Under the pieces are notes generated by a model. The model had not been told where the DNA came from. It was given only the letters and a program-made list of their open reading frames with translations, and did not search any database. From an uncultured Candidatus Saccharibacteria bacterium (GTDB taxonomy: Bacteria > Patescibacteriota > Minisyncoccia > SW-4-49-11), in the NCBI GenBank assembly GCA_964646465.1, contig CAZYEN010000029.1, positions 2,670 through 66,669 of the forward strand: a DNA stretch of 64,000 bases, read 5' to 3'. The translations under genes were made by a program, and so were the position numbers. Below, one piece after another: positions 5,148 to 55,315 of this stretch; the stretch's first letter is position 1, and each line of letters opens with the position of its first letter.

Positions 5148-5429
5148 TCACCCCTCCACTTTTTCAAATCTATTAACAATTTGTCCCTTTTCTAGTTGGA
5201 CGGGTGTATTCCAGCCATCCTCACCATTTACTTTTCTGACCCAGATTATTGAGTCGTCTAGACTTTGGTAAATTACTACAGGCTCTTCATCCCATTCTAA
5301 TAGGGCTAGATTGAGTACTTTGTAATGTTTTTGAGGACTTTTGTAATGATAATATTTAACTCCTATTTTTATATTATATTGCTCGAGATTTAATTTATCT
5401 AATAATTGAGTGGAGTCTGTATGTGCCAT
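5148..5429 (-). CDS. DUF1653-like small protein
   Basis: The pattern YYHYKSPQKHYKV...VVIYQSL...WVRKV...NRFEKV resembles the YrHYKG...VvYr...WvRP...RFe signature of DUF1653. Confidence 0.45.
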   Translation of the reverse strand: MAHTDSTQLLDKLNLEQYNIKIGVKYYHYKSPQKHYKVLNLALLEWDEEPVVIYQSLDDSIIWVRKVNGEDGWNTPVQLEKGQIVNRFEKVEG

Positions 5430-5480
5430 AGATTTTAAGTTTAGAATATACTTAATTATAGCATAATTATAGTCCCTCTA

Positions 5481-5511
5481 TATATAAATGCAAATGATTT
5501 GCATTTATATA
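5481..5511 (+). promoter_or_regulatory. Perfect 14-3-14 palindrome (tatataaatgcaaa-tga-tttgcatttatata), a candidate Zur/Fur-family operator
   Basis: The inverted repeat is seen directly in the sequence. It lies in the divergent intergenic region between the DUF1653 gene and the COG0523 GTPase gene, and COG0523 genes are classic Zur regulon members. Confidence 0.45.
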
Positions 5512-5527
5512 TATTCTTTGATATACT

Positions 5528-6631
5528 TTGAAAAGTAAATTAGATAATATTATGCAAGATAAGCAAACTAAACTTTTACCGGTGACGGTATTATCTGGAT
5601 TCTTAGGTAGTGGGAAAACCACTCTTCTTAATGCCATTCTCAAAAATAGGCAGGGTCTTAAGGTTGCTGTGATCGTGAATGATATGTCTGAAGTGAATAT
5701 TGATGCTGAATTGGTAGCTAATAATGAAGTCTCTCTAAGTCAGACTGAGGAAAAGTTAGTAGAGCTCAGCAATGGATGTATTTGTTGTACATTGCGGGAA
5801 GATTTATTGGTGGAGGTGAAAAAATTAGCTCAAGAAAATCGTTTTGATTATCTCGTGATTGAATCTACAGGAATATCTGAACCATTACCTATTGCTGAAA
5901 CTTTTACTTTTGATGATGAGTCTGGAGATATTTTGTCTAATTTCGCAAGATTAGATACTATGGTGACGGTGGTAGATACGGCTAATTTTATGAATTATCT
6001 TGCCTCAGAAGATCAGCTTAAAGATACTGATGAATCTCTTGGGGAAGAGGATACCCGAACCATTGTAGGACTCCTTACAGATCAAATTGAATTTGCTGAT
6101 GTGATTGTATTATCTAAAGTGGATTTGGTGGATAAGGGAACTGTGGGTACTATTCGAGGTATTGTAACCAAGCTTAACCCTGATGCCAGAATTATTGAAG
6201 CGGTGAAAGGCGATATTCCTCTTAATGAGATTCTCAATACCGGATTATTTGATTTTGATAAGGCTTCTCAAAATGTGGGGTGGCTCAAAGAGATGCGAGG
6301 AGAACATACTCCAGAAACTGAGGAATATGGCATTAGTAGTTTTGTCTATGAGTCCAAAAAGCCTTTTGATAGACAAAAGCTGATGGAATTATTGCAAAAT
6401 GGTACACTACAGGGCGTAGTCCGATCTAAAGGGTTTGCTTGGGATAATTCTGACCTTACGACAGCTTTATTATGGTCTCAAGCAGGGAATATTATCAATC
6501 TAGACCCGTATGGATATTGGAGTAAATCTAAGAGTGGGTATATTAAGGGGGAGCAAAAAATTGTCTTTATTGGAGCTAATATGGATAAAAAAGCTATTGC
6601 AGAAGCTTTAGATAAGTGTTTGGGGATATGA
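5528..6631 (+). CDS. COG0523 (CobW/YciC/ZigA-like) metallochaperone GTPase
   Basis: P-loop GFLGSGKTT, the CxCC metal motif GCICCTL, and a CobW C-terminal domain. Confidence 0.85.
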   Translation: MKSKLDNIMQDKQTKLLPVTVLSGFLGSGKTTLLNAILKNRQGLKVAVIVNDMSEVNIDAELVANNEVSLSQTEEKLVELSNGCICCTLREDLLVEVKKLAQENRFDYLVIESTGISEPLPIAETFTFDDESGDILSNFARLDTMVTVVDTANFMNYLASEDQLKDTDESLGEEDTRTIVGLLTDQIEFADVIVLSKVDLVDKGTVGTIRGIVTKLNPDARIIEAVKGDIPLNEILNTGLFDFDKASQNVGWLKEMRGEHTPETEEYGISSFVYESKKPFDRQKLMELLQNGTLQGVVRSKGFAWDNSDLTTALLWSQAGNIINLDPYGYWSKSKSGYIKGEQKIVFIGANMDKKAIAEALDKCLGI

Positions 6632-7461
6632 TTTTAGCATTTTTAGGTAAAGGTGGTAGTGGTAAGTCTTCTGTATCTGCTCAGATGTCCCTTTATCTTG
6701 CTTCTCAGAGGAAAAATGTATTGGCTATTGATGCTGATCATAATATGGATTTGTCATATAATCTGGAGGGAGAAGATATGATGTATTATGGAAATGCTTT
6801 AATGGATTTACAATTAGCAGTTGGTCTTGATAAAGAAGAAAAGTATTCAGCTGTATTTTTGCAGAATATAGTGAAACGATTTACTTTATCTCCATTATCT
6901 TCTGAAATTGAGAAGTATTCTATGAAGTTGGAGAATGGTATTCGATTGATGAGTGCTGGACCTCAAACTGATGATGTCCTGTATGGAAAAGCTTGTAGTC
7001 ATATTTTAACTACTCCATTAAAACTTCTTCTTCCTTTATTAGAGCTTCAAGAAAATGAGGTTGTGATAATTGATGAAAAAGCTGGAGCCGATGGAGTTTC
7101 TACAGGAATTATTACAGGGGTGGATATTGGAGTAATAGTTTGTGAACCAGCATTACATAGTATCAAAACTGCAAAGCAAATTGCAGAATTAATAAAATTT
7201 TATGAAACTCCTTATATGTTTGTAGGGAATAAAGTAACTTCAAGTGAAGACAAAAATTTTATTGAGGAAAGTTTGGGAGAGATTCCTATTGCTTACTTAA
7301 TGGAAAGTACGAATCTAAAAAGAAATCCCTCTCTCTTGGTTTCAGAGTGGAGTGATGAGCTGTCCATGATATTCGAACATGCACAAAAGATATCTCAGAA
7401 TAATCGTTTAGAAAGAACCATAAAGAAATTTCAACGAAATCAGAAATTTTCTCATAATTAG
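6628..7461 (+). CDS. CooC/MinD/ParA-family P-loop ATPase
   Basis: The deviant Walker A GKGGSGKSS is followed by AIDADHN. The start overlaps the upstream stop as ATGA (6628-6631), so the two genes are translationally coupled. Confidence 0.7.
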   Translation: MILAFLGKGGSGKSSVSAQMSLYLASQRKNVLAIDADHNMDLSYNLEGEDMMYYGNALMDLQLAVGLDKEEKYSAVFLQNIVKRFTLSPLSSEIEKYSMKLENGIRLMSAGPQTDDVLYGKACSHILTTPLKLLLPLLELQENEVVIIDEKAGADGVSTGIITGVDIGVIVCEPALHSIKTAKQIAELIKFYETPYMFVGNKVTSSEDKNFIEESLGEIPIAYLMESTNLKRNPSLLVSEWSDELSMIFEHAQKISQNNRLERTIKKFQRNQKFSHN

Positions 7462-7549
7462 TTGCCGTTACCAAAGAGCTCACGAGAATGGGTTCTTTGG
7501 TGATGGGAACATTACCAGGTTACAATCCCTTTACGGAGACTCACACATC

Positions 7550-8257
7550 ATGTGTAATGCACATTTCAATGAACATCTTGCTCCTCTTAATCGTCGGCAT
7601 TTGGAAGATGTTCAGACTTATTTTCCCTCTCAAGCTGAGTTTGCAGAAAAAGTCTTTCATGCGTTGATATCTAATTTGAATCCTCAGGTTAACCTTCTTG
7701 TTGCCTTTGTGGCTCTGAAGTATCAATATGATCTTGGTATGAGAGGTATTTTTGGAAGATTTGGCAGAGTGCTTTATGCTCCACTTTCTATCGTTGCAAA
7801 AACAGGCTCTCATGAATGGATTCGTTTCCGTCCCATCGTTGTGGAGGAACTTCACAAAAGTTTCCTTTCCCTTATGATGGCGAAAGAGAATCGTCTAGCT
7901 TTGGAGGGTGTGATGGGTGAGTATGGACTTACTCTATCGCAGAGACATTGCTGTGGCATTATCTTTGGAGAAAGTTCATCGGTATATCGCTTTGAGTCTT
8001 CAGATGAGTCAAAGTTGCGGAATGAAATGCGGAGTTATGCTGAATCAATGGGTATGCCTGTTAGAGTTGTAGAGTTTGATAATATCCCAAGTGAGAATAG
8101 TGATTTGGGAGTAGTTGAACGAGCATTTTATGATTTGTGCAGTGATGTGTTTGCTCGAATTGCATTGCAAGGATATGAATCTTATATTGATCCTCGGCAA
8201 GAATTGCTCTGGGATGAAATTGTTCTCTCAAAACCAGTTTTTATGAATACTTTGTGA
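7550..8257 (+). CDS. Hypothetical protein in a GC-elevated segment
   Basis: A 235-aa ORF. Sampled 60-nt lines here are about 38-40% GC, against roughly 28% in neighbouring genes. No motif was recognised. Confidence 0.4.
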   Translation: MCNAHFNEHLAPLNRRHLEDVQTYFPSQAEFAEKVFHALISNLNPQVNLLVAFVALKYQYDLGMRGIFGRFGRVLYAPLSIVAKTGSHEWIRFRPIVVEELHKSFLSLMMAKENRLALEGVMGEYGLTLSQRHCCGIIFGESSSVYRFESSDESKLRNEMRSYAESMGMPVRVVEFDNIPSENSDLGVVERAFYDLCSDVFARIALQGYESYIDPRQELLWDEIVLSKPVFMNTL

Positions 8258-8368
8258 GTTTGTACTCCATCAAGCCTGGCACCATGTGTTGGGCTTTTCT
8301 ATATTCAAAAAGATAATATTGTAGTACAATATATTTTAAATATTGTATCCCGAATCGATAAGAACAGA

Positions 8369-14773: not shown

Positions 14774-16474
14774 ATGTATATAAATCAAACATGGTATGTA
14801 AAAAAGTCTGTTTTGCTTGTGGCCTCATTAGCCACATTTTTTGTTTATGATGCTTATGCTTTGGCGAATGCCAATAATAATCAAGGGTTAAATGAATATG
14901 TTGACCCTAGTCAAAACCCTAAGTATTCTCAAGTTTATAATGAAATTACTTTTACAGGAGATGGAATTACCAAAGAAGAATTAGATGATATAAATAGCCT
15001 TATAAACTTAAAAGAAAATTCTATTGAAGAGCCTATAGCTGTGGTAGGTGAGGAAGTCGTCCCTATCTCTAAATTAAAAATAGGAGCTAAAATCAAAAGC
15101 CTAGCTTATAATAGTAGTCCTGAGGACACTAAATTTATAGAATTAAATTATTATAGAGGCAAAGATGAAAATTTAGAAAATAAAAAAGCCAAGAGAAAAG
15201 AATTAAAGGATAAAAAATCTAAAGAATTGGAAACAATAGTGGCTAAATTAGATTATGAAATTAATACACAAGAACAACGAATACAAAAAAATAAAACCAA
15301 CTGGGACAAAAAAGCTAAATCCAACAAAGCTCAAGTAGAGAAATTAAAATCTAAAACTCAAACAGCCATTAGCAATAACAATAAAGAAATAATGGATATT
15401 CTATACCCTAGTAAAGAGAGTATAGATAAACTTAATGCTGCAATTTTGGAAGAGCGAAATAAATCTAAGAATTTTTTGGAGCAGAATGCTAATCGACCAA
15501 AGTATATAAAGGAAAAACTGCAAACTTCGATTAAAATTCCGGAAGTTTTAGCCTGGGGAGATTCTTCTAACTCAGTTAATAATTTAGTTATTTATAATCG
15601 AGCAAACTGGGACTATATCTGGGATGTAGATTATGCAAATGCTGTGAATGGACAAACTTTCAAACTCTGGGGTAGAGCTAATGATGCTCCAAAACAATTT
15701 AGATTCATAGATGCTAGAGCTGAGATTAGATTTGTTGGAAAAAAGGGAGTAGAGAAATGTGTAGATGTAGATTTAGCTAATGGTAGATATGATAATGGAG
15801 ATAGAGTGCATCTTTGGGACTGTCATGGTGGTAATAATCAGAAATTTATAGTACAATCAGATGGTACTATTAGACCTAAATTTGCACAACATATGTGTCT
15901 TGATGCTAGTGCAGGAGTTAGTTATGGAAGTCGTATTCATCTTTGGCAATGCCATGGAGGGAGTAATCAAAAGTTCAATGCCGGGGAGTATGATTTTGAT
16001 GGCCAGAGATTTTATTTGAGGATACAATCTTTATCAACTCCAAACGCGCAGAATGTTGTAGGGCATACATTCGTTTCAGTATGGCGTACTGGTAGAGGAA
16101 TTACTAATACCTTTAGCTTCTGGCCTAATAAAGACTTTAATGATTCAAATTATAATGGTAGAAAAAATAATATAGGTACAGGAAATAATATCAATATAGA
16201 TCACGAAAATGATTGGAACAATTCATATTATGGGACTGAAAAAGGTTTTCGATATAAAGATATAAGCATAACAAAGCAAATGTATGATGAAATAAAATAT
16301 ATGAGAGGATATCAAGCTAAGAGTTCATACATAACCTATTCTTATGATTGGTGTTTATTAAATTGTGTTAGATTCTCAACAGATTTATGGAATAAATATA
16401 CTGGTGATTCACTAAGATCATACAGTTACTCAACAGGATGTCATTCTCCAGGAATTGTATATAATAGTCTTTAA
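14774..16474 (+). CDS. Secreted protein with a Lys-rich coiled-coil region and a ricin-B (beta-trefoil) lectin domain
   Basis: An N-terminal signal peptide is present. The repeated motifs HLWDCHGGNNQKF and HLWQCHGGSNQKF are QxW-type ricin-B repeats. The Cys-containing C-terminal domain was not recognised. Confidence 0.75.
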   Translation: MYINQTWYVKKSVLLVASLATFFVYDAYALANANNNQGLNEYVDPSQNPKYSQVYNEITFTGDGITKEELDDINSLINLKENSIEEPIAVVGEEVVPISKLKIGAKIKSLAYNSSPEDTKFIELNYYRGKDENLENKKAKRKELKDKKSKELETIVAKLDYEINTQEQRIQKNKTNWDKKAKSNKAQVEKLKSKTQTAISNNNKEIMDILYPSKESIDKLNAAILEERNKSKNFLEQNANRPKYIKEKLQTSIKIPEVLAWGDSSNSVNNLVIYNRANWDYIWDVDYANAVNGQTFKLWGRANDAPKQFRFIDARAEIRFVGKKGVEKCVDVDLANGRYDNGDRVHLWDCHGGNNQKFIVQSDGTIRPKFAQHMCLDASAGVSYGSRIHLWQCHGGSNQKFNAGEYDFDGQRFYLRIQSLSTPNAQNVVGHTFVSVWRTGRGITNTFSFWPNKDFNDSNYNGRKNNIGTGNNINIDHENDWNNSYYGTEKGFRYKDISITKQMYDEIKYMRGYQAKSSYITYSYDWCLLNCVRFSTDLWNKYTGDSLRSYSYSTGCHSPGIVYNSL

Positions 16475-20775: not shown

Positions 20776-22161
20776 TTATTTGGAATACTTATCTATAAAT
20801 TCGGGCTTGATTTTCTTTAGTTCTTTTCTCGGTAATATTGATAATAATTCCCAAGACAAATCTAAGGTGTCTAGAATGGTTCGGTTTTCTCGTCTTCCTT
20901 GCCTTATATATCTACTCTCAAATGCTTCAGCGAATTTGATATAGGCTTTATCTGTCTCTGATAGGGCTGATTCTCCTAGGATTAAGGCTAATTCCTTGAT
21001 TTCCATACCTTTGGCATAGGAGGAGGCCATTTGCTCTTTGACGGCGGATAAATCTTCTCGGCTGTATTTTTTATCTACGCCAATTCGGGATAATGATCCA
21101 ATTGGTTGGATTGGAGGGTATATTCCTTGATTATGTAGCTCTCTATTGACCATAATTTGGCCTTCTGTGATGTATCCGGTTAAATCTGGTATTGGATGCT
21201 GCTTATCATCATCTGGCATTGTAAGGATAGGGATTTGGGTGAGTGACCCTGTGGATCCTTTGACTATTCCTGCTCTTTCATACAGGGTTGCAAGGTCGGT
21301 ATATAGATATCCTGGATATCCTCGTCTTCCTGGAATTTCTTTTCTAGAGGCTGAGACTTCTCGGAGGGCATCAGCATAATTGGTCATATCTGTTAGGATG
21401 ACTAATACATGCATATTCTTCTCAAAGGCTAAGTATTCTCCTAGAGTGAGAGCTAATCTTGGTAGGGTAATTCGCTCTACAATTGGGTCGCTAGCGGTGT
21501 TGATAAACAAAGCTGCTCTCTCCATCGCTCCGGTTTTTTCAAATGAGTCTATGAAGAATTGAGCTTCTTCAAAGGTGACTCCCATAGCTGCAAAGATTAC
21601 TACGAAAGGTTCTTCGGCTTTGACTAAATCTGTTCCATTTTGTAGGGCTACAACTTGGGCTTGTTCAGCAATTTGGGTGGCTATTTCAGAATGTGGTAGT
21701 CCTGACCCTGAGAAAATAGGTAGTTTTTGTCCTCTTACTAGGGCATTTAGTCCGTCTATGGTGGAGATTCCAGTTTGAATAAATTCACTAGGGAATTGTC
21801 GCATTCCTGGATTGATAGGGGAGCCATTGATGTCTAGATATTTCTCAGCGATTATTTCTGGTCCGCCGTCTTTGACTTTACCAGCTCCTGTGAATACTCG
21901 TCCTAACATACTGTCTGAGACTCCAAATTTGAGAGTTTCTCCTAAGAAGGCTATCTCGGCATTCTTTACATCTAATCCGTCGGTACTAGTGAATAACTGT
22001 ACTACAGCGGTGTCTTTGCTGGCTTCTAGTACTCGTCCTTGTCGGATTTGTCCTTTTGAGTCTCTAATTTCCACCATTTCCTCGAAGGCAACTTGTGGGA
22101 CTTTCTCAACTACGACTAGGGGTCCGGCAATTTCTTTGATTGTGTTATACCATTTCTTCAT
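20776..22161 (-). CDS. atpB: V/A-type ATP synthase subunit B
   Basis: A 461-aa non-catalytic B subunit, highly conserved throughout. Confidence 0.9.
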
Positions 22162-22170
22162 ATAATTATC

Positions 22171-24003
22171 CTAAATTCCACTTATTACTTTATTGATACC
22201 AAAGTCCTCGGATTTATCATTATCTTTGAGATTTTGAATTGTGCTTGAGATATTTTCTATTAGAGACACTATATTCTCAATGTCTGATTCTGGAGTATTT
22301 TTGAGTCTAGCAATTTCTTCACGAATTGGTAGGTCTAGGATATCATTTATCTCAATTTGAGGATTATTTTTGGCGGTTTCAGTGGCTTCATTATGGAAGG
22401 TCATCATTGCTTTTAGCATCAAATACATTTTACGAGTTGAGGCAAAGGCATCAATTTCATCAAAGGCATTTTGTTGTAGATAATCTTCTCGAAGTCCTCG
22501 AGCTGTATCTAGGAGTATTTTCTCAGAGGTAGATAGGGCGTCCATTCCTACTAATTTTATAATATCGTCTAGCTCATTTTCTTTCTGTAAAATTTGCATT
22601 GCTAAATCTCTTAGGTCTTTCCAATCTGAATCAGTTGCATTGATGAAATATTCTTCTACATTATCTTTGTATAGGCTATAACTATTGAGCCAATGAATAG
22701 ATGGAAAATGTTTTTTGGCGGCTAGAGATGCATCTAATCCCCAAAAAGCTTTGGTCACTTTAAGAGTGGCTTGGCTAACTGGTTCAGATAAGTCTCCACC
22801 TGGAGGTGATACGGCTGCAATGATAGTGGCTGACCCAATTCTTTCTTCTGTTCCTAATGTGCTGACTATTCCGGCTCTTTCATAAAAGGCTGAAATTCTA
22901 GATCCAAGATAGGCAGGATATCCTTCTTCTCCTGGCATTTCTTCTAGTCTTCCTGACATTTCTCGCATAGCTTCTGCCCAACGAGAGGTTGAATCGGCCA
23001 TCATAGCTACATTGTATCCCATATCTCGATAGTATTCAGCTAAGGTAATACCTGTATAAACTGAGGCTTCACGAGCTGCGATTGGCATATTGGAGGTATT
23101 GGCAACTAAAATCGTTCTTTCCATCAAAGGTCGTCCAGATTTTGGATCTTTAAGGTGTGGAAATTCTACCAATACATCGGTAATTTCATTTCCTCTCTCT
23201 CCACAACCTACATAAACTACAATATCTGCATCTGACCATTTTGCTAATTGATGTTGAATAACTGTTTTTCCAGCTCCGAATGGTCCTGGTACGGCGGCTG
23301 CTCCTCCTTTTGGAATTGGGAAGAATGTATCTATAATTCTTTGTTGAGTTATTAGTGGAGTAGTTGGCACTTGTTTTGCTTTGTATGGTCTTGGGGTTCT
23401 AACTGGCCATTTGTGCATTAATTGGACTGGGTTTTCTCCAATTGTAGCTATTGTCTCGGTAATTGTGAATTCTCCTGCCTTGATATCCTTAACTTCTCCC
23501 TCTACTCCAAATGGAACTAAAATCTTATGAGTAATTAACTCGGTCTCTTGTACTGTACCTAATATGTCTCCAGTGGTTACAGAGTCTCCTTTTTTGACTA
23601 ATGGCTTAAATTCCCATTTCATCTCTCTGTCTAGGCTAGGAGCGGTTAAACCTCTTGCAATATATTCAGCATTCAATCCTTGGGCAGCTGCTTTCTCAGC
23701 AATTACATTTAGAGGTCGTAAAATTCCATCAAATAATCCAGAGGTCAAAAGTCCTGGGCCTAATTCAATACTAAGGGGCTCTCCAGTTGAGACAACAGGC
23801 TCTCCTACGATTAGACCAGAGGTGTCCTCATAGACTTGAATGGAGGCTGTATCACCTTTTAATTCAATGATTTCCCCCATTAATTCTAGATTTCCAACTT
23901 TCACTAAATCATACATTTTAGCTCCTTTCATGGAGTCTGCGATAACTAGTGGTCCTGAGATTTTGATGATAATTCCGGTATTCATAGTAATTAGTTTAAT
24001 CAA
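22171..24003 (-). CDS. atpA: V/A-type ATP synthase catalytic subunit A
   Basis: Walker [10 protein letters not shown], 610 aa with the A-subunit-specific non-homologous insert, and the ERGNE region. Confidence 0.92.
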
Positions 24004-24323
24004 GAGTTGAATAATTTGTCTAGGCTCATACCTACGGCTTTCTCGGTCAGCTGCTTTAGCTCCTCAACAGAGTTGCTATCTGAGCTAATAGGTAGCTGTG
24101 ATATAGGTATATTGAGGGAATTGAGAACTTTTCTTTGCTTGGTAGATAATATAATGTTGGATGCTATAAAGATAATTGCGTACATCTCTGCATCTTTCTG
24201 GATATTAGCTATTATCTGATCTATTTCCAAGTCATCACTATTCAAAGTTTCAAAACCAAATAGTTTAAATAGTAGTGTTATTTCAGTATCAGCGATTAGA
24301 GCTGGCTTTTTATAGTCTATCAT
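24000..24323 (-). CDS. atpF: V/A-type ATP synthase subunit F
   Basis: A 107-aa ORF with the N-terminal LIADTEI..LF.L.G profile, in the F position of the operon. Confidence 0.7.
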
Positions 24324-25258
24324 ATATTGGAATAATCTATAAATCTTAATTGAGCCTGTTTAGAATCAATTTGTTTGGAGTGGTGTAGAATCAATAATTT
24401 AAAGTTAGTAATTGTATATTGGAGCCTCTCGGTATATTGTATAATTCTATCCCCAGACATCCCTGTAAATTGAGCTTTACTTAAGGCTTTGATCTCATTT
24501 TTAATAAGGGTGTTTTCAATGTTTATTGTGTTAATATCTACCGGAGCTAGATTTAGATATTGGCCTATATCTCCTAACACATCTCCAAAACCAAAGCTTT
24601 TTACAGCATTTATAGCCAGACTTCCCTGAATAGGTAATAAATGTCTTAATATATGTTCTTTTGACTGTCCTTTTTGAGTTCTTGTTAAAACATTGAGTAG
24701 GGTATAGCTATCTATTTTAGCTAATATAAAATCCTTCATTATATCACTACTTCTGTTTAGGTTTTCAAATAGTAGAGTTAAAAATATTTCTTCTAAATAA
24801 GAGATTAGGCTAAAGCTATCTTGTGAGTGAATAAGTTTTTCCTCTTTGGCTAATAATTTAGACTTGAACTGTGCAGAATAATATAGTTTATCAGAGACTT
24901 CAGTTAGAATTTGTTCAAACCCTTTCTCTCCAAGTGTCTCCCCATAAATAGTTTTATTAATAGATAGTGTTTTGAGTTTTTCAAAGTCTTGAGACATCTT
25001 GAGATAAATAAAGGGGGCAGAGTTCTCTGGCAAAAGGGATAGGATTTCTGTTATTTGTTGGTGATAATACTGATTGAGTTTATTTATTAAATTTTCTAAA
25101 TTGAGTTCGGCTAGACCAAAGGACTCTCGAATTGTATTTAGAATTACTTCGATACTATCAGTTACTAAAAGTGCTTTAGTCGTATTAGACTCAGGTAAAT
25201 AACTTAGTCTAGTTACGTATCTACTAGTTACACCAATTAGAGGGACTTGTAAACTCAT
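24320..25258 (-). CDS. atpC: V/A-type ATP synthase subunit C (d)
   Basis: A 312-aa helical protein in the operon position between E and F. Confidence 0.7.
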   Translation of the reverse strand: MSLQVPLIGVTSRYVTRLSYLPESNTTKALLVTDSIEVILNTIRESFGLAELNLENLINKLNQYYHQQITEILSLLPENSAPFIYLKMSQDFEKLKTLSINKTIYGETLGEKGFEQILTEVSDKLYYSAQFKSKLLAKEEKLIHSQDSFSLISYLEEIFLTLLFENLNRSSDIMKDFILAKIDSYTLLNVLTRTQKGQSKEHILRHLLPIQGSLAINAVKSFGFGDVLGDIGQYLNLAPVDINTINIENTLIKNEIKALSKAQFTGMSGDRIIQYTERLQYTITNFKLLILHHSKQIDSKQAQLRFIDYSNI

Positions 25259-25791
25259 ATTTCCTTCATTATGGCAGGTAGTGTTTTTTGTTTTACTTTA
25301 TCAAGAATATCCTCTACAGTAATTTCTAAATTCACCTCATCTAATTTAGCAGTGATGGCTCCTAAGTTAGAGCCTTGTTCTAGGTTATTTTTTTTATACC
25401 CTAGACTTTGAGTAATGCTTGCTAATTCTTTAGAGTAGTTGCCACTTATATTTAAAGTTGTAGAATTGGGGATATCTTTTAATATCTTTTGGATTGAGTC
25501 TTTTACAAAGTTTGAGTTTATAATCTCTGGTATTATATCCTTATAAATAGAGTTAAGTTGAGTTTGGATTGAATAACCGTAGTTAAACTTTTGAGTTTTA
25601 CTTTGTTGAAATTTATGGAAATTAATTTGAGTTGCCACTGCCTCGTCAATTTTCTCGGCATGTATTTTTTTAGTCTCAGATACGACTCTGTCCCAAGTGT
25701 TTTTAGTCTCTTTTAACTCTGCTTGATACTGAGCCTCTAACTTCTTAACATCTTTATTTATCTGAGATTGTATTGAATCTGCTAAAGTCAT
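25255..25791 (-). CDS. atpE: V/A-type ATP synthase subunit E (peripheral stalk)
   Basis: A 178-aa ORF with an N-terminal coiled coil and a globular C-terminus, correctly placed in the operon. Confidence 0.7.
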   Translation of the reverse strand: MTLADSIQSQINKDVKKLEAQYQAELKETKNTWDRVVSETKKIHAEKIDEAVATQINFHKFQQSKTQKFNYGYSIQTQLNSIYKDIIPEIINSNFVKDSIQKILKDIPNSTTLNISGNYSKELASITQSLGYKKNNLEQGSNLGAITAKLDEVNLEITVEDILDKVKQKTLPAIMKEI

Positions 25792-25792
25792 A

Positions 25793-26308
25793 TTATCCTA
25801 CTGATACTCCGTTAATAATCAAAATAGAAACTAGAAGTCCGAACACAGCGAAAGTCTCTACCAAGGCTGCTAGAATAATAACTTGTCCAATTTTAGATTT
25901 ATCTCTAGAAATTAACTGTACACCACTGGCGATTACATCTCCTTGATATTTACCTGAAGCTAAACAAGTAAGTCCGACTGGAATTCCTGCAAAAGCCAAA
26001 ATCATACCGTTCTGCCAACTTAAATTTGCAAATTCACCAGATAAAACTCCTGTGTTTTGTAAAATCAGCACAGCTGCCAAAAGTCCATAGATGGCCTGGG
26101 ATCCTGGAAGAGCAGACAACAAAAGCACATTCCCAAATTGAGAATCATCTTCCGCTACCAATCCTGCTCCGGTTTTTCCTGCTGTAGATACTCCAATAGA
26201 TGAACCAGCACCAGCCAATCCTGCTGCAAGGGCTGCTCCTAATACTGCTAAACTTACTCCTAATATTTCCATATTTTCAACTTTAACTCTTATATAAGGG
26301 ACACTCAT
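25793..26308 (-). CDS. atpK: V/A-type ATP synthase proteolipid subunit K (c)
   Basis: A Gly/Ala-rich four-helix proteolipid of 171 aa. Confidence 0.85.
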   Translation of the reverse strand: MSVPYIRVKVENMEILGVSLAVLGAALAAGLAGAGSSIGVSTAGKTGAGLVAEDDSQFGNVLLLSALPGSQAIYGLLAAVLILQNTGVLSGEFANLSWQNGMILAFAGIPVGLTCLASGKYQGDVIASGVQLISRDKSKIGQVIILAALVETFAVFGLLVSILIINGVSVG

Positions 26309-26376
26309 TGTTTACTGGTATCCTTTTCACTATACTCCTAATTTAACCTATGAATACAGTGAAAGAGATCACAGTA

Positions 26377-28413
26377 TTATTCAATAACACTGTACTCTTG
26401 GGATCTTGTTACTACTTGCAGTGGTCTTCCTCCAGATTGGAAGAATTTGCTGAAAAACTCTACAAAGTGTAGCCTACCAACATTGATGTAAGTACCTAAT
26501 ACATTAAGAGCTATATTAAATACATTTCCAGCTACGAATATAATTGTCATAATTATATATCCAATTATTACCCAAGCTCCACCTTTTTCTACAAACCCAC
26601 TTCCTGCTAAGTTTGCTAAAGTACCAACTACTCCTGCAATAATTCCAGTAGCAAGGCCTAGAGCTACCAACCTAGTATAGGATAGTATGTCAGATAGATA
26701 TCCTACCACTCCAAAAAAGACATCGTAAGCTCCTTTTCCAAATTTAGCAAAAATGGATTTCATTTCTCTTCCCAAAAGATATATCATCACAAATATATAG
26801 GCTATATATACATATAGTAGGGGATCAATTAATAATTTTAGGCCATCTCCTAACAACTCCATATTAATTAAAATTAGGAATATTCCGAATATTAGAGCTC
26901 CGGCCCATAGAATTGAATCTAGACTGGCATCTAAAAAAGATTTAGAGTTATAAGCTTGAACTATATTGAGCACCAAACCAAATAGTAAATGTACTATTCC
27001 AAGAACGATTGTGAATCCCATTAAAGCGATAACACTATCCATTGGGTTAAGAATCTGCATCTTTTGTAAGAGAGGAATCAAACCAATGTTGATTAGAAAT
27101 TTCATATGTGGTGAGGCTGTAGCAGGATCTACAACATCTGGTGTAATCCCAAACCAACTACCAAATAAAGCTCCAATAATCAATGTAGAGATAGATGCAA
27201 TAAATACAACTGCAAAAATATCTCTAATACCTGATTTTAATCTAGGATTAATTAATCCAAGTCCTGTCAAAATAATCAAAATAAGAGCATACCCTGCCTC
27301 AGATAAAGCCAAACCGAACATAAAGGTGAAGAAAATTGCAATAGACAGGGTAGGGTCAATTTTACCGGCTTGTGGATACCCCATGATTTTTGTGACTGTC
27401 TCAAAATGTCTAATTATTGGAAGGTTCTTCAGTATCACTGGACTTGATTCAAAGTTTGCTGGTAACTCAACTACCTTGCCACTATCAGTGATTTTAGATA
27501 CTGATTGTCTGACAGAATCAAATTGTTCTTCATCTACCCATAATTGTATTGATGAGTTTTCTTCGGATTCTGGATTAAATGAATGTAAATAAGAAATTAA
27601 ATTCAGGTGTGAGTTTAGCACGTCAACTAATATAGCTAAATCCTTGAATTTGACGGGCGATTTTTTAAGTTCTCGTCTTAATTTAGTTAATAACTTATTA
27701 TTTGAGTTAAGCTCTTGTTTACTATTGTGATAAATGTCATAGAAAGATCCACTGACTTCGGCTGGGAATTGTATTAATGTTGCTTGATTCTGTATTATGT
27801 CAATGGCAATTTTAACTTGATTCTTCGGTAGTGCTAAAATATATACGTAATCAGTTCCAAGTTTTTTTACGGATTCCAGTACCATAGGAGATACCGCATG
27901 CTCTAATTGTTCTGCTATATAATGTGCTCTAGACTCGTCTATCAAAAATGGTAAAAAGCTAATGTATGAGTATGATTTAAAGATATTTATTTCAATATCT
28001 TTTAATGGTTCAGATTTAGCAATAATGTCCTGTAGAACCTCCTGACGTATTAGTAGGTCATCTTTTAGCTCTGCCTTCTCTACAATCTCCTTAGCCTTTA
28101 TAATAATATTATCTTTTTCTTTATCATAATGTTCAAACACATCTTCAGTTATACTAAATCTATCATCTAGTACGGCAGAAAGCATTGACTTTTTTTCTAA
28201 ATGGTATTCTTTATATACATCTAGAGCTTTATTGACTATATCTAAGTTTTCTAAAATATCTTCTTGTATAGCATGATGTTTCTTAGAAAGTGGTGTTCTT
28301 TCTACTTTTTCTATTATTTCACCAACTTGTTGTTTTTGAAAATATGATAACAGTTCGAGTTGATGTTTGTTAGGAACTGTAACTTGGATTAGTTTAGATG
28401 CTTTAACTCCCAT
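26377..28413 (-). CDS. atpI: V/A-type ATP synthase subunit I (a)
   Basis: A 678-aa ORF with a soluble N-terminal half and a C-terminal half of 7-8 TM helices, placed second in the operon. Confidence 0.85.
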   Translation of the reverse strand: MGVKASKLIQVTVPNKHQLELLSYFQKQQVGEIIEKVERTPLSKKHHAIQEDILENLDIVNKALDVYKEYHLEKKSMLSAVLDDRFSITEDVFEHYDKEKDNIIIKAKEIVEKAELKDDLLIRQEVLQDIIAKSEPLKDIEINIFKSYSYISFLPFLIDESRAHYIAEQLEHAVSPMVLESVKKLGTDYVYILALPKNQVKIAIDIIQNQATLIQFPAEVSGSFYDIYHNSKQELNSNNKLLTKLRRELKKSPVKFKDLAILVDVLNSHLNLISYLHSFNPESEENSSIQLWVDEEQFDSVRQSVSKITDSGKVVELPANFESSPVILKNLPIIRHFETVTKIMGYPQAGKIDPTLSIAIFFTFMFGLALSEAGYALILIILTGLGLINPRLKSGIRDIFAVVFIASISTLIIGALFGSWFGITPDVVDPATASPHMKFLINIGLIPLLQKMQILNPMDSVIALMGFTIVLGIVHLLFGLVLNIVQAYNSKSFLDASLDSILWAGALIFGIFLILINMELLGDGLKLLIDPLLYVYIAYIFVMIYLLGREMKSIFAKFGKGAYDVFFGVVGYLSDILSYTRLVALGLATGIIAGVVGTLANLAGSGFVEKGGAWVIIGYIIMTIIFVAGNVFNIALNVLGTYINVGRLHFVEFFSKFFQSGGRPLQVVTRSQEYSVIE

Positions 28414-52345: not shown

Positions 52346-55315
52346 ATGTATAATCATAGAATTATTGAACAGAAATGGGTTCAAAAGTGGTCCGAGGGAT
52401 TTGTAGATTACACAATTAATCCTCAAACATCTGAGGATAAAAAATATATTTTAGTTGAATTCCCTTTCCCTTCAGGAGCTGGACTTCATGTAGGACATAT
52501 CAGAAGTTATGTAGCTCAGGACATTAAAGCTAGAATATATAGAATGCAAGGAAATCAGGTGTTATATCCCATAGGTTGGGATGCTTTTGGTTTGCCAACA
52601 GAAAATTATGCTATTAAAAATAATATATCCCCAGCAGTAGCAACAGCAGATAATATAAAGAATTTTAAAAAACAATTAGCAGTCCTAGGGTTGTCTTTTG
52701 ATTGGAGTCGTGAAATCAATACCACTGACCCTAAATATTATAAATGGACTCAATGGATTTGGCTACAAATGTTTAAGTCAGGCCTTGCCTATCAAGATAC
52801 CACTCAAGTTTGGTGGTGTGAAGAATTAAAGACTGTCTTAGCTAATGAAGAGGTGATTGATGGTAAATCAGAGCGGGGAGGACATCCTTGTATTAGAGTT
52901 CCACTTCGGCAATGGATGTTAGCTATTACTAAGTATGCAGATAGATTAGACCGAGATTTAGAAAAAGTAGATTATTTACCAATTATCAAAACTCAACAAA
53001 GAAATTGGATAGGACGTAGTGAGGGGTTTGAGTTAAAATTTCAAGTTCAAGATATAGATCAGAATATAGAAATATTCACCACTAGAATCGATACTATTTT
53101 TGGAGTGACTTTTTTAGTTTTAGCTCCGGAACATCCACTTTTAGATAAAATTGTAAAAGCAGAATATAAGAATCAAGTTAAAGAGTATCAAGAGCAAACA
53201 AAATCTAAAAGTGATCTTGACAGACAACAAAGTAAAGATAAAACCGGGGTATTTACTGGAGCTTATGCTATACATCCACTAACAGAAGAACTAATCCCAA
53301 TTTGGATAGCTGATTATGTATTGGCAAGTTATGGTACAGGGGCTATAATGGCGGTCCCTGCCCACGATGAGAGAGATCAGGAATTTGCCAAAGAGTTTGG
53401 ATTATCTATTAAGCAGGTAGTTGCTCAATATACTACTCTTACAGGGCAAGATGCTCCAAAGAGTGATGAAAATATTGTGGAATTTGATGCTGCAACGGTA
53501 ATTATTAAACATTGGGTAGAAGAGTTATATTATGTCGTTCAATTTAGTAATAAAGCACAAGGTTTTGTTGGGGGGCATGTTGAATTAGGTGAGACAACAG
53601 AACAAACCGCAATTCGTGAGACGGCAGAAGAATCTGGATATATAGATATTAAAAATATTGAGCAGCTTATAGCACATGCATATGGCCGTGGATATAAGCC
53701 ACGTAAATCAAGAGAGGAATTATGCCATGATTCTCTTTACTTAATACATTTGAAAAGTGGTGAGAGGGTTGATGTTAATGATCATGAGATTAAAAATGGT
53801 GACTGGCTGAGTGCAGAAGAAATTGTAAGATCACAATTATTTTCTGATGGACACCGTTTATTTTTTGAATATTATCTCAATCAAAAACCATTTACAGGGT
53901 ATGGAAAACTTGTTAACTCAGGAGAATTTGATGGACTATTTTCAGAAGAGGCAAAGAAATCTATTATTACAATATTAGAAGAGCAAAATATCGGACACAG
54001 AAAAGTCCAATATAAACTTCGTGATTGGGTTTTCTCCAGACAAAGATATTGGGGAGAACCATTTCCTATTGTTTGGATAATTGAAGAGCATTATAAAAAA
54101 ATATCAGGAGAGATTGCTAGATTTTTACCTAGTCAAGCAGTAACTAGAGAAATAGAGGGGGTATTGCAGTATGCTGTCCCAATTGCAGTTTCAGATTTGC
54201 CATTAGAATTACCAGAAGTAGATTCTTATGTCCCTCAAGGATTAGGTGAAAGCCCATTAGCTCAAGCTACAGATTGGTTAGAAGTTTGGTATAATGTCCA
54301 AACTGGCCAAGCCATATCCAGGCAAAATCACAAGCCAGATAGTAATTGGGTAGAAGCCTTACGAGAAACCGATACAATGCCTAATTGGGCAGGAAGTTCT
54401 TGGTATTATCTTAGATATATTGATCCTAATAATGATGAGAAATTAGCTGACCCAGAATTATTAAAAAATTGGCTACCAGTATACTTATATAATGGAGGAA
54501 TGGAGCATGTTACATTACATCTATTATATTCAAGATTTTGGCATAAATTTTTATATGATATTGGAGTAGTCCATACCATAGAACCATATCAGACCAGAAT
54601 TAAGCACGGTATGATTTTAGCTGAAGGTGGTGTAAAAATGTCCAAGTCCAAAGGGAATACTGTTGACCCGATTGAAATGGTAGAGTCATTTGGAGCAGAT
54701 TCTCTGAGAGTTTATGAAATGTTTATGGGGCCTTATGATGAAGCCATAGCTTGGGACACTAAAGGTTTAATTGGATGTAGTCGCTTTTTAAAAAGAATCT
54801 ATCAATGGGTAAATGATATGAAAGAGCAAAAATTACAACCCAATAATGATAAAGCTAATCTAGACTATGAGACACATTCATTAATCAAGAAAATTACTCA
54901 AGATATAGATAATCAGAAATATAATACTTGTGTTAGTAGTTTGATGGAATATCTTAATTTATACAATACTCAAGATATAGGTATAGATAATATTAAAATA
55001 TATATTAAATTATTAGCTCCATTTGCCCCACATTTAACAGAAGAATTATGGGAAATAGTAGGGGAGAAGAATACAGTACATAAGTCCATATGGCCAATTT
55101 ATGATGATACTAAATTAGTCCAAAGCCAGTTAGATTATCAAATCCATATCAATGGTAAAATGCGAGATATCATCACAGTATCGAATGCATCCAACGAGGA
55201 AGAAATTCAAATACAAGCCCTCAACTCAGACAAAGTAAAACATATTCTGTCAGACAATATTCCAAAAAAAATTATAATAAATCAAGATAAACAAATAGTA
55301 ATAATTATTGTATAG
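52346..55315 (+). CDS. leuS: Leucyl-tRNA synthetase with a ~155-aa MutT-like Nudix domain inserted after the CP1 editing domain
   Basis: HVGH, the CP1 region TTRIDT...GTGAIMAVPAHDERD and KMSKS are all present. Between GLSIKQVV and LVNSGEFDGL there is an extra segment with the Nudix box GGHVELGETTEQTAIRETAEESGY. Confidence 0.9.
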   Translation: MYNHRIIEQKWVQKWSEGFVDYTINPQTSEDKKYILVEFPFPSGAGLHVGHIRSYVAQDIKARIYRMQGNQVLYPIGWDAFGLPTENYAIKNNISPAVATADNIKNFKKQLAVLGLSFDWSREINTTDPKYYKWTQWIWLQMFKSGLAYQDTTQVWWCEELKTVLANEEVIDGKSERGGHPCIRVPLRQWMLAITKYADRLDRDLEKVDYLPIIKTQQRNWIGRSEGFELKFQVQDIDQNIEIFTTRIDTIFGVTFLVLAPEHPLLDKIVKAEYKNQVKEYQEQTKSKSDLDRQQSKDKTGVFTGAYAIHPLTEELIPIWIADYVLASYGTGAIMAVPAHDERDQEFAKEFGLSIKQVVAQYTTLTGQDAPKSDENIVEFDAATVIIKHWVEELYYVVQFSNKAQGFVGGHVELGETTEQTAIRETAEESGYIDIKNIEQLIAHAYGRGYKPRKSREELCHDSLYLIHLKSGERVDVNDHEIKNGDWLSAEEIVRSQLFSDGHRLFFEYYLNQKPFTGYGKLVNSGEFDGLFSEEAKKSIITILEEQNIGHRKVQYKLRDWVFSRQRYWGEPFPIVWIIEEHYKKISGEIARFLPSQAVTREIEGVLQYAVPIAVSDLPLELPEVDSYVPQGLGESPLAQATDWLEVWYNVQTGQAISRQNHKPDSNWVEALRETDTMPNWAGSSWYYLRYIDPNNDEKLADPELLKNWLPVYLYNGGMEHVTLHLLYSRFWHKFLYDIGVVHTIEPYQTRIKHGMILAEGGVKMSKSKGNTVDPIEMVESFGADSLRVYEMFMGPYDEAIAWDTKGLIGCSRFLKRIYQWVNDMKEQKLQPNNDKANLDYETHSLIKKITQDIDNQKYNTCVSSLMEYLNLYNTQDIGIDNIKIYIKLLAPFAPHLTEELWEIVGEKNTVHKSIWPIYDDTKLVQSQLDYQIHINGKMRDIITVSNASNEEEIQIQALNSDKVKHILSDNIPKKIIINQDKQIVIIIV

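Follow-up and report, generated by a model that had tools for sequence, protein, structure and literature searches.

A candidate zinc-limitation operon from Candidatus Saccharibacteria that joins a COG0523 GTPase, a CooC-like ATPase, and a cysteine-containing partner protein

NTPase-driven insertion of metals is well described for nickel (CooC, HypB, and UreG) and for cobalamin-related cobalt (CobW). CooC is the ATPase that inserts nickel into CO dehydrogenase (CODH), and it has small partners, CooT and CooJ. The HypB/HypA system, on which Watanabe and colleagues worked in 2015, reportedly consists of a MinD-type ATPase and a separate metallochaperone, with N-terminal residues forming the metal site. 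For zinc, the only such NTPases that we know of are the COG0523 GTPases, and both their mechanism and their clients are, to our knowledge, largely open. Here we describe a locus from an uncultured Candidatus Saccharibacteria bacterium (contig CAZYEN010000029.1) in which a COG0523 GTPase (gene 1), a CooC-like ATPase (gene 2), and a 235-amino-acid protein (ORF3) are encoded one after the other. This module lies at positions 5528-8257 of the 64,000-nt stretch of DNA that we analysed, which we call the window, and its three open reading frames (ORFs) are on the same strand.

Two findings about the known systems are needed for what follows. CooC1 binds zinc or nickel at its dimer interface through Cys112 and Cys114, which are strictly conserved, and CooT requires Cys2 for nickel binding (PMC6006190). 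COG0523 subfamily 1 is regulated by Zur, and the ZigA/YciC-like group of COG0523 proteins is typically found without a dedicated neighbouring client (PMC2770081).

We propose that the three genes form a metal-starvation operon, most likely for zinc, and that their products are a metallochaperone module for zinc limitation. Together with the mechanism that we describe below, this seems to us a reasonably probable account. Its parts are not equally strong. We are quite confident that this is a Fur-family-controlled metal module with an obligate pair of ATPase and partner protein, and the metal is fairly likely to be zinc. Between the partner acting as a co-chaperone and the partner being a client, we see the chances as roughly even.

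The ATPase and its partner protein

Gene 2 encodes an ATPase of the MinD/ParA class with the deviant Walker A motif GKGGSGKS (aa 7-14) and a DADHN motif (aa 35-39). Its best match by sequence in the Protein Data Bank (PDB) is CooC1 (3kje, E = 6e-10). CooC1 is also the best Foldseek match (E = 6e-12, TM-scores of 0.66 and 0.71) of its AlphaFold2 (AF2) model, which has a mean predicted local distance difference test score (pLDDT) of 88.9. The next matches are MinD, a ParA-family ATPase, the ATPase-type HypB, FlhG, BchL, and NifH. As modelled, the ATPase is CooC-like in its fold, and its mode of action is probably CooC-like as well.

The CxC motif of CooC is replaced in the gene 2 protein. In the HMMER alignment, G-S-Q-C-Y-C of CooC1 lies opposite G-K-A-C-S-H, which puts C123-S124-H125 (nt 6994-7002) in the place of CxC. 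C-S-H is invariant in the ATPase family, as judged from two separate alignments (14/14 and 32/32 members). Other invariant features of the family are D35, D37, H38, and N39, the sequence DEKAG, H177, and a basic C-terminal tail. The family is large (968 matches with E ≤ 1e-10), and JGI labels many of its members as "CO dehydrogenase maturation factor". NCBI gives two of the listed matches as proteins from metagenome-assembled genomes (MAGs) of Patescibacteria and Moranbacteria. We found no association with the nickel-containing CODH (cooS or acsA): there is no CODH in the annotated neighbourhoods of the relatives or among the 36 ORFs of the window that we scanned against Pfam. (The scan took in the larger ORFs, and 30 of the 36 lie outside the module.)

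The ATPase and ORF3 stay together across large evolutionary distances. Every homolog of ORF3 with a readable context adjoins a homolog of the ATPase, in one of three arrangements. The ATPase comes first in L001, L003, and L005; the two genes are convergent in a Saccharibacteria MAG (L006) and a Nomurabacteria MAG (L007); and ORF3 comes first in a MAG with 64% GC (L008). Because this adjacency survives three gene orders across distant lineages, we believe that the two proteins are a functional pair. We also surveyed 80 further loci from the side of the ATPase, each with an ATPase alignment, by using scripts to call ORFs and to classify the neighbours. We recognised a partner gene in 69 of 76 non-redundant loci; where both flanks were at least 900 bp long, the count was 47 of 48. 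A near-obligate pair is thus formed by the ATPase and the 235-aa protein, and only some loci add a COG0523 GTPase, a Fur-family regulator, or a ZIP importer to it. As for the conservation of the neighbourhood, which the first-pass annotation of this DNA had suggested checking, the adjacency of ATPase and partner is kept, but the type of partner and the presence of the COG0523 gene vary.

The partners fall into several types. Type A, the ORF3 superfamily, is the most common (38 loci), followed by type B1 (17 loci; about 130 aa, starting with MSFPS), type DE (6 loci; 250-290 aa), type B2 (5 loci; about 140 aa, or 139-152 aa in L009, starting with MDCKT or MQCED), and type C (3 loci; about 87 aa, Cys-rich, starting with MSSPCGGCPPCC). 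None of these types has a genuine Pfam family, as the only match (of type B1 to the "NucS shadow ORF" model) is below the cut-off. Profile-profile comparisons with hhalign relate B1 to B2 (E = 5e-6) and A to B1 (E = 1.5e-4), and the PLS/PNS and G-x-h...CC-G motifs are aligned in a core that these three types have in common. The link between B2 and A runs only through this chain of families: when the 152-aa partner from L009 was compared as a single sequence to the ORF3 profile, the result was not significant.

In one relative (L029), two ORF3-family genes stand in tandem after a single ATPase gene. Such duplications of the partner may be raw material for the turnover of cassettes.

ORF3 had been called an orphan in the first-pass annotation, but we found 26 homologs (39-91% identity), none of which has a functional annotation. 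When we searched 1.84 billion representative proteins with a profile, we obtained 68 clusters, nearly all of them 200-265 aa long and none with a fusion to another domain. ORF3 has no Pfam or NCBIfam family and no homology of sequence or fold to CooT or HypA. The AF2 model of ORF3 is mixed alpha/beta and confident (pLDDT 94.2, predicted TM-score 0.91), and Foldseek found nothing like it in the whole PDB at E ≤ 1e-3 (best TM-score 0.19).

The conserved residues of ORF3 include the clusters of His and Cys that the first-pass annotation had recommended looking for. They are Met1-Cys2, His17, Ser80, Arg92, His102, His133-Cys134-Cys135-Gly136 (nt 7946-7957), Arg161, Asp185, and Glu190. Among close homologs, Met1-Cys2 (27/27), His102, and His133-Cys134-Cys135-Gly136 are invariant, as are many polar residues. 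Across 114 full-length members of the superfamily, Cys2 is conserved in 85%, His102 in 93%, and Cys135 in 96%, and each of Ser80, Arg92, Gly136, Arg161, Asp185, and Glu190 is conserved in at least 82%. Position 133 is occupied by His in 48% and by Cys in 47%, and position 17 by either His or Asp. As far as an alignment can tell, this alternation of His with Cys or Asp at fixed positions is the behaviour of metal ligands. With Met1-Cys2, ORF3 also has a conserved N-terminal residue of the kind that serves as a metal ligand in partners such as CooT (Cys2) and HypA (Met1-His2).

ORF3 could instead be a client: a metalloenzyme that receives the metal for its Cys/His site from the CooC-like ATPase, possibly with the COG0523 protein assisting. 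It might even be a zinc-independent or alternative-metal substitute for a zinc enzyme, made only under zinc limitation, as replacement enzymes are common beside COG0523 genes in Zur regulons (PMC2770081). The near-obligate adjacency to the ATPase and the confidently predicted fold of a globular 235-aa protein would suit an enzyme, and the invariant Arg92, Arg161, Ser80, Asp185, and Glu190 beside the Cys/His set resemble a substrate pocket. However, an ATPase that is 95% identical at the DNA level has a type-B2 partner of 139-152 aa in L009, and the same slot can hold the 87-aa, Cys-rich type C or the 130-aa type B1, which is hard to square with a single activity. Also, ORF3 has no relationship to a known enzyme, either in sequence or in fold (among PDB structures). 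That near-identical ATPases have different types of partner favours interchangeable metal-handling partners over distinct client enzymes, so we consider a client enzyme to be unlikely, if still a serious alternative.

The presumed operator, the choice of metal, and a proposed mechanism

A long palindrome lies upstream of gene 1 (Table 1). From its sequence, we presume that it is the operator of a Fur-family repressor of the Zur type. The core of the palindrome, TGCAAATGATTTGCA (5489-5503), is unique in the window, even if 2-3 mismatches are allowed. The right half of the box contains the -35 element of the operon's promoter-like site (-35 TTTGCA, an 18-nt spacer, and a TG-extended -10 TATACT), and the left half contains the -35 element of a divergent promoter-like site (-35 TTTGCA, -10 TATAAT). 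The divergent site belongs to a DUF1653 gene, which this box may control as well; in L085 and L089, DUF1653 is likewise found together with the box and COG0523. Like the operators of Fur-family regulons, the presumed operator is an AT-rich palindrome that lies over the promoter and recurs in front of orthologous operons.

In related loci, the box is concentrated at the genes of the module. We searched 76 loci that are non-redundant at 97% ATPase identity (546 kb in total) with the query TGCAAATnATTTGCA. Allowing up to 2 mismatches, there were 78 matches. The promoter zones of module genes account for 10% of the sequence but for 74 of these matches (binomial p of about 1e-68). With at most 1 mismatch, all 34 matches are in these zones, and so are all 13 perfect boxes. 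Most of the loci (53/76) have at least one box at the module. If we assign boxes to genes, allowing one box to count for several genes, then 46 are assigned to the ATPase, 23 to Fur-family genes, 9 to ZIP genes, 6 to COG0523 genes, 5 to type-A partners, and 2 to type-DE partners.

The same loci point to the regulator. Fur-family genes (PF01475) are within 2.5 kb of the module in 41/76 loci, and they encode short proteins of 110-160 aa. The box is very probably the operator of this linked regulator, judging by position, because the Fur-family gene heads or flanks operons that are preceded by the box, which is the classic autoregulated arrangement. ZIP transporters (PF02535) are at the module in 13/76 loci and COG0523 genes in 12/76, and several of these COG0523 genes overlap their neighbour as they do in the window.

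The COG0523 protein itself is ZigA-like. Gene 1 has the cobW (PF02492, E = 3e-56) and CobW_C (PF07683, E = 9e-22) domains, the P-loop GFLGSGKT (aa 16-23), and the CxCC motif in the form CICC (aa 76-79; nt 5777-5788). By a wide margin, its best match in NCBIfam is to ZigA, a zinc metallochaperone GTPase (526.9 bits, against 161 for CobW). As this is under the 600-bit cut-off for ZigA equivalogs, we describe the protein as ZigA-like and not as a certified equivalog. The puzzle of the missing client mostly dissolves, because ZigA/YciC-like COG0523 proteins are typically Zur-regulated and have no dedicated client beside them.

We chose zinc because of the ZIP and ZigA-like COG0523 genes, the likeness of the box to Zur boxes, and the known control of COG0523 subfamily 1 by Zur. 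Mycobacterial Zur boxes such as ATGAAAATGATTTTCAT were derived experimentally (PMC4298942). The core in the window differs from these at one symmetric position in each half-site.

Alternatively, the module could be under a Fur-, Nur-, or PerR-type regulator and could serve iron or iron-sulfur clusters, nickel, or cobalt. The linked Fur-family proteins do match the Fur and PerR models best, with all scores far below the cut-offs, and the nearest structural relatives of the ATPase handle nickel (CooC and the ATPase-type HypB) or iron-sulfur clusters (NifH and BchL). Cys/His ligands would also suit nickel or a [2Fe-2S] cluster, and ZIP transporters can carry iron or manganese. However, the COG0523 protein located with the ATPase is ZigA-like, and the box is closest to the Zur boxes of actinobacteria. 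The consensus sequences for Fur (TGATAATnATTATCA) and for PerR are unlike the box. Nor is there a nickel enzyme or an iron-uptake gene among the neighbours whose families were checked, a check that did not extend to the neighbours in the 80 metagenome loci. We think that another metal is rather unlikely.

Several observations weigh against our proposal. In the 64-kb window there is no second box, no Fur-family gene, and no ZIP gene. NCBIfam does not separate Zur, Fur, and PerR for the linked regulators, and neither ZIP transporters nor COG0523 proteins are strictly specific for zinc. On the side of the partner, ORF3 is 89 nt away from the ATPase gene and is not translationally coupled to it; the invariance of Ser80, Arg92, Arg161, Asp185, and Glu190 would fit the active site of an enzyme as well; and hhalign does not link types C and DE to any other type, including type A.

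Our zinc-limitation proposal would work as follows. When zinc is sufficient, a Zur-type repressor would sit on the TGCAAATnATTTGCA palindrome and block both of the divergent promoters. In this genome the repressor would be encoded elsewhere, and in many relatives it would be encoded within the module. When zinc is scarce, derepression would lead to the production of the ZigA/YciC-like GTPase, the coupled CooC-family ATPase, and the 235-aa Cys/His protein. The partner may bind a metal ion via Cys2 (which would be at the N-terminus after removal of Met), His102, His/Cys133, and Cys135, if the conserved positions are a guide. The ATP-bound dimer of the ATPase would form a site of two Cys and two His (Cys123 and His125 from each subunit) where CooC1 has its nickel or zinc. 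ATP binding and hydrolysis might then gate the hand-over of metal between ATPase and partner and onward to client proteins, and the ZigA-like GTPase might act in parallel with this pair or upstream of it. The hand-over could resemble that of CooC with CooT, or of the ATPase-type HypB with HypA; we intend this as an analogy of mechanism and not as a claim of family membership. We infer the identity of the repressor, the specificity for zinc, the binding of metal, and the direction and target of its transfer.

Layout of the locus and exchange of cassettes

Bases 5479-8306 form a single operon, with a presumed operator and a promoter-like site, the COG0523 gene, the coupled gene for the CooC-like ATPase, the gene for the partner, and a terminator-like hairpin (Table 1). 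Gene 1 had been listed as starting at TTG 5528, but the ATG at 5552 is most likely its start, because the promoter-like -10 element ends at 5527 and because public gene calls have the 359-aa form.

Table 1. Features of the module and its surroundings (window coordinates)
Feature	Position	Strand	Basis
DUF1653 gene, 93 aa	5148-5429	-	Pfam PF07866, E = 6.6e-8
Divergent promoter-like site of the DUF1653 gene	5466-5494	-	Consensus scan only
Perfect 17-1-17 inverted repeat, TATATATAAATGCAAAT-G-ATTTGCATTTATATATA	5479-5513	.	Read from the sequence
Promoter-like site of the operon	5498-5527	+	Consensus scan only
Gene 1, COG0523 G3E GTPase, ZigA/YciC-like, 359 aa	5552-6631	+	Pfam, NCBIfam
Gene 2, CooC-like ATPase of the MinD class, 277 aa	6628-7461	+	Pfam, PDB matches by sequence and structure
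Spacer between ATPase and ORF3, 89 nt	7462-7549	+	Sequence, blastn against L009
ORF3, type-A partner protein, 235 aa	7550-8257	+	ORF list, alignments of homologs
Terminator-like hairpin (11 pairs) with T-rich tail, end of the operon	8272-8306	+	Sequence scan

Much of the first-pass annotation stands. It had described a CobW-type GTPase with a CxCC motif and a CooC/MinD-type ATPase with a deviant Walker A motif, whose genes overlap as ATGA (the stop of gene 1 and the ATG of gene 2, at 6628-6631), followed by a 235-aa ORF, and all of these are present. It had also remarked that no client metalloenzyme is nearby, and we found no CODH, urease, nitrile hydratase, or hydrogenase among the 36 scanned ORFs. 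These have housekeeping functions: they include subunits of a V/A-type ATPase, cysteinyl- and leucyl-tRNA synthetases, RecA, and phosphoglycerate kinase, along with a type IV pilus ATPase, an ABC-2 exporter, a histidine kinase, and a P-type cation ATPase.

The claims about composition fared less well. The background GC content had been put near 28%, but the window has 32.9%. ORF3 does have an elevated GC content (39.8%; z-score +1.45, fifth among 60 ORFs), and by tetranucleotide distance it is at the 98.6th percentile of windows of the same size. In contrast, neither its GC content at third codon positions (GC3; 30.1%, rank 9 of 60) nor its codon-usage distance (rank 10 of 60) stands out. So the deviation is real but modest, with ordinary GC3 and codon usage.

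Comparisons with close relatives show that genes have been exchanged at this locus. Against L009 (by blastn), identity is 79% and 67% in the flanks but 95% in the region of the ATPase (6612-7518, corresponding to 5985-6891 in L009 and including 57 nt past the stop codon of the ATPase), which points to a recent recombination or transfer event that involved the ATPase gene itself. Homology to L009 is then lost across exactly ORF3 (7518-8266), where L009 has its type-B2 gene. L009 has no COG0523 gene, and there the box is directly before the ATPase. L085 and L089 have 83-85% homology to the window from DUF1653 through the box and COG0523 and on into the ATPase gene, of which about the first 130 nt are included (5157-6764). 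This homology breaks at 6764 and resumes at 8264-8275. Between the breakpoints, both have a divergent ATPase, which is accompanied by a divergent type-A partner in L085 and by a type-B1 partner in L089. The right breakpoint (8264-8278) coincides with the terminator-like hairpin (8272-8296).

Replacement thus has a hot spot in the slot that follows the operator. The mildly odd composition of ORF3 can be explained by replacement of the cassette, without ORF3 being an unrelated insertion. The recent acquisition that the first-pass annotation had suspected is therefore correct insofar as a partner, or a pair of ATPase and partner, has been swapped at fixed breakpoints, but it was not the arrival of an unrelated gene. 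The first-pass annotation had named absence of the 235-aa ORF from relatives as a refutation, and this applies only formally: L089 and L009 have no ORF3-type gene, but another type of partner fills its slot there.

The spacer between the ATPase gene and ORF3 contains ATGGGTTCTTTGGTGATGGGAACATTACCA, which would encode MGSLVMGTLP, within a part (7462-7518) that is about 95% identical to L009. In P0022, L013, and L009, the same stretch is in frame and extends the partner ORFs at their N-terminus. In the window, the stretch is out of frame with ORF3; it might be a leader, a regulatory element, or a remnant.

The rapid turnover of cassettes, and their exchange between close relatives, would also be explained if gene 2 encoded a positioning or partition ATPase of the ParA/MinD type with ORF3 as its adaptor, or if the genes were a defence or toxin-antitoxin cassette, and the ATPase does have the MinD/ParA fold. 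But C-S-H is invariant at the metal site of CooC, the module is linked to the Fur-family box, ZIP, and COG0523, PADLOC gives only weak P-loop matches, and CooC1 is the best match both by sequence and by structure, so we consider this very improbable. That ORF3 is an unrelated recent insertion, with no functional tie to the GTPase-ATPase pair, is hardly credible: its GC content, its tetranucleotide composition, and its absence from this site in the closest relative (L009) would fit, but the ORF3 superfamily is a near-obligate neighbour of the ATPase family. All the contexts that we examined have the two side by side, in three orders and across distant lineages. No relative has an empty slot, as another Cys-rich partner is there instead. 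The GC3 and codon usage of ORF3 are also unremarkable.

Some other features of the window and of the relatives lie outside the module. The ATPase subunits encoded at 20776-28413 (- strand) are of the V/A type (A, B, and I-like) and not of an F-type ATP synthase. The ORF for leucyl-tRNA synthetase (52346-55315, + strand, 989 aa) has a match to NUDIX (PF00293, E = 2e-12) at residues 402-503, directly after the editing domain, which looks like an unusual insertion. In a 566-aa protein (14774-16474, + strand), the N-terminal half is rich in lysine and coiled-coil-like, and there is a ricin-type beta-trefoil lectin domain (PF00652, E = 2e-16); the protein might be at the cell surface or bind to a host. 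On the - strand, two neighbouring ORFs (1011-1796 and 1899-2666), each about 260 aa long, have no Pfam family, and BLASTP did not detect paralogy between them (E = 0.08). In a relative (7727-8617 of L003 and 1721-2611 of L004), the gene after the module combines NusB (PF01029) with NUDIX (PF00293), which is an unusual combination.

Comparison with known metal-delivery systems

If our account of the module is correct, then it would be a second, ATP-driven arm of zinc allocation beside the COG0523 GTPases, and its ATPase would be the first of the MinD class to be assigned to zinc allocation. The pair would also be a simple two-protein system for studying how a metal is handed over. The box provides a testable regulatory motif and regulon for bacteria of the candidate phyla radiation (CPR), and the partners include a newly defined protein family with a confidently predicted fold and no match in the PDB. 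The pairing also gives a context to about 1000 proteins (the 968 matches), some of which JGI names as CODH maturation factors, with no CODH in the contexts that were checked. In the literature that we searched, whose coverage was incomplete, we found no Zur regulon from CPR bacteria, no CooC-like ATPase in a zinc regulon, and no mention of the partner family, and we found nothing relevant on CooC in Patescibacteria or on a zinc uptake regulator in Saccharibacteria.

The ATPase resembles CooC in its MinD-class fold, in its GKGGxGK[ST] motif, and in having a two-residue metal motif at the site of the dimer interface of CooC1. It differs in that this motif is C-S-H and not CxC, that the scanned ORFs of the window include no CODH, and that a Zur-like box stands before the module, whose linked genes are ZIP and COG0523 and not cooS. 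ORF3 shares a conserved Cys2 with CooT. However, CooT is a 7-kDa beta protein, and ORF3 has 235 aa and a fold that is unmatched in the PDB.

The ATPase-type HypB, which delivers nickel for the [NiFe]-hydrogenase of Thermococcus (5auq, 3vx3), is among the top structural matches of the ATPase. Unlike in that HypB, the Cys/His motif is conserved in the ATPase of the module itself. Also, there is no hydrogenase among the scanned ORFs, and ORF3 is unrelated to HypA.

Gene 1 resembles the Zur-regulated COG0523 proteins (YciC, ZigA, YeiR, and the eukaryotic ZNG1) in its domains, its CxCC motif, and the Zur-like palindrome upstream. It differs in being coupled to a gene for a CooC-like ATPase, which we did not find described in the literature that we searched.

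The box is like the Zur boxes of Gram-positive bacteria and actinobacteria (a 7-1-7 palindrome, TGAAAATnATTTTCA) in being an AT-rich 7-1-7 palindrome over the -35 element, and it agrees with the MAP boxes such as ATGAAAATGATTTTCAT at 15/17 core positions. It is unlike them in the third base of each half-site, which is C/G in the window and A/T in those boxes.

In summary, a Fur-family operator, a COG0523 GTPase, and a MinD-class metallochaperone ATPase are all of known kinds. What appear to be new are the CxH subfamily of the ATPase, the Cys-rich partners that are both obligate for it and interchangeable, the fold of type A, which has no match in the PDB, and the consensus of the operator. More tentatively, we suggest that these belong to a previously undescribed zinc-starvation system of CPR/Patescibacteria and some other lineages. 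In such a system, a CooC-family ATPase in which CxC has become CxH would work with interchangeable and rapidly exchanged Cys-rich cassettes (A, B1, B2, C, and DE), type A would have a new fold with a Cys2/His/(His/Cys)-x-Cys metal site, and control would be by a lineage-specific Zur box, TGCAAATnATTTGCA.

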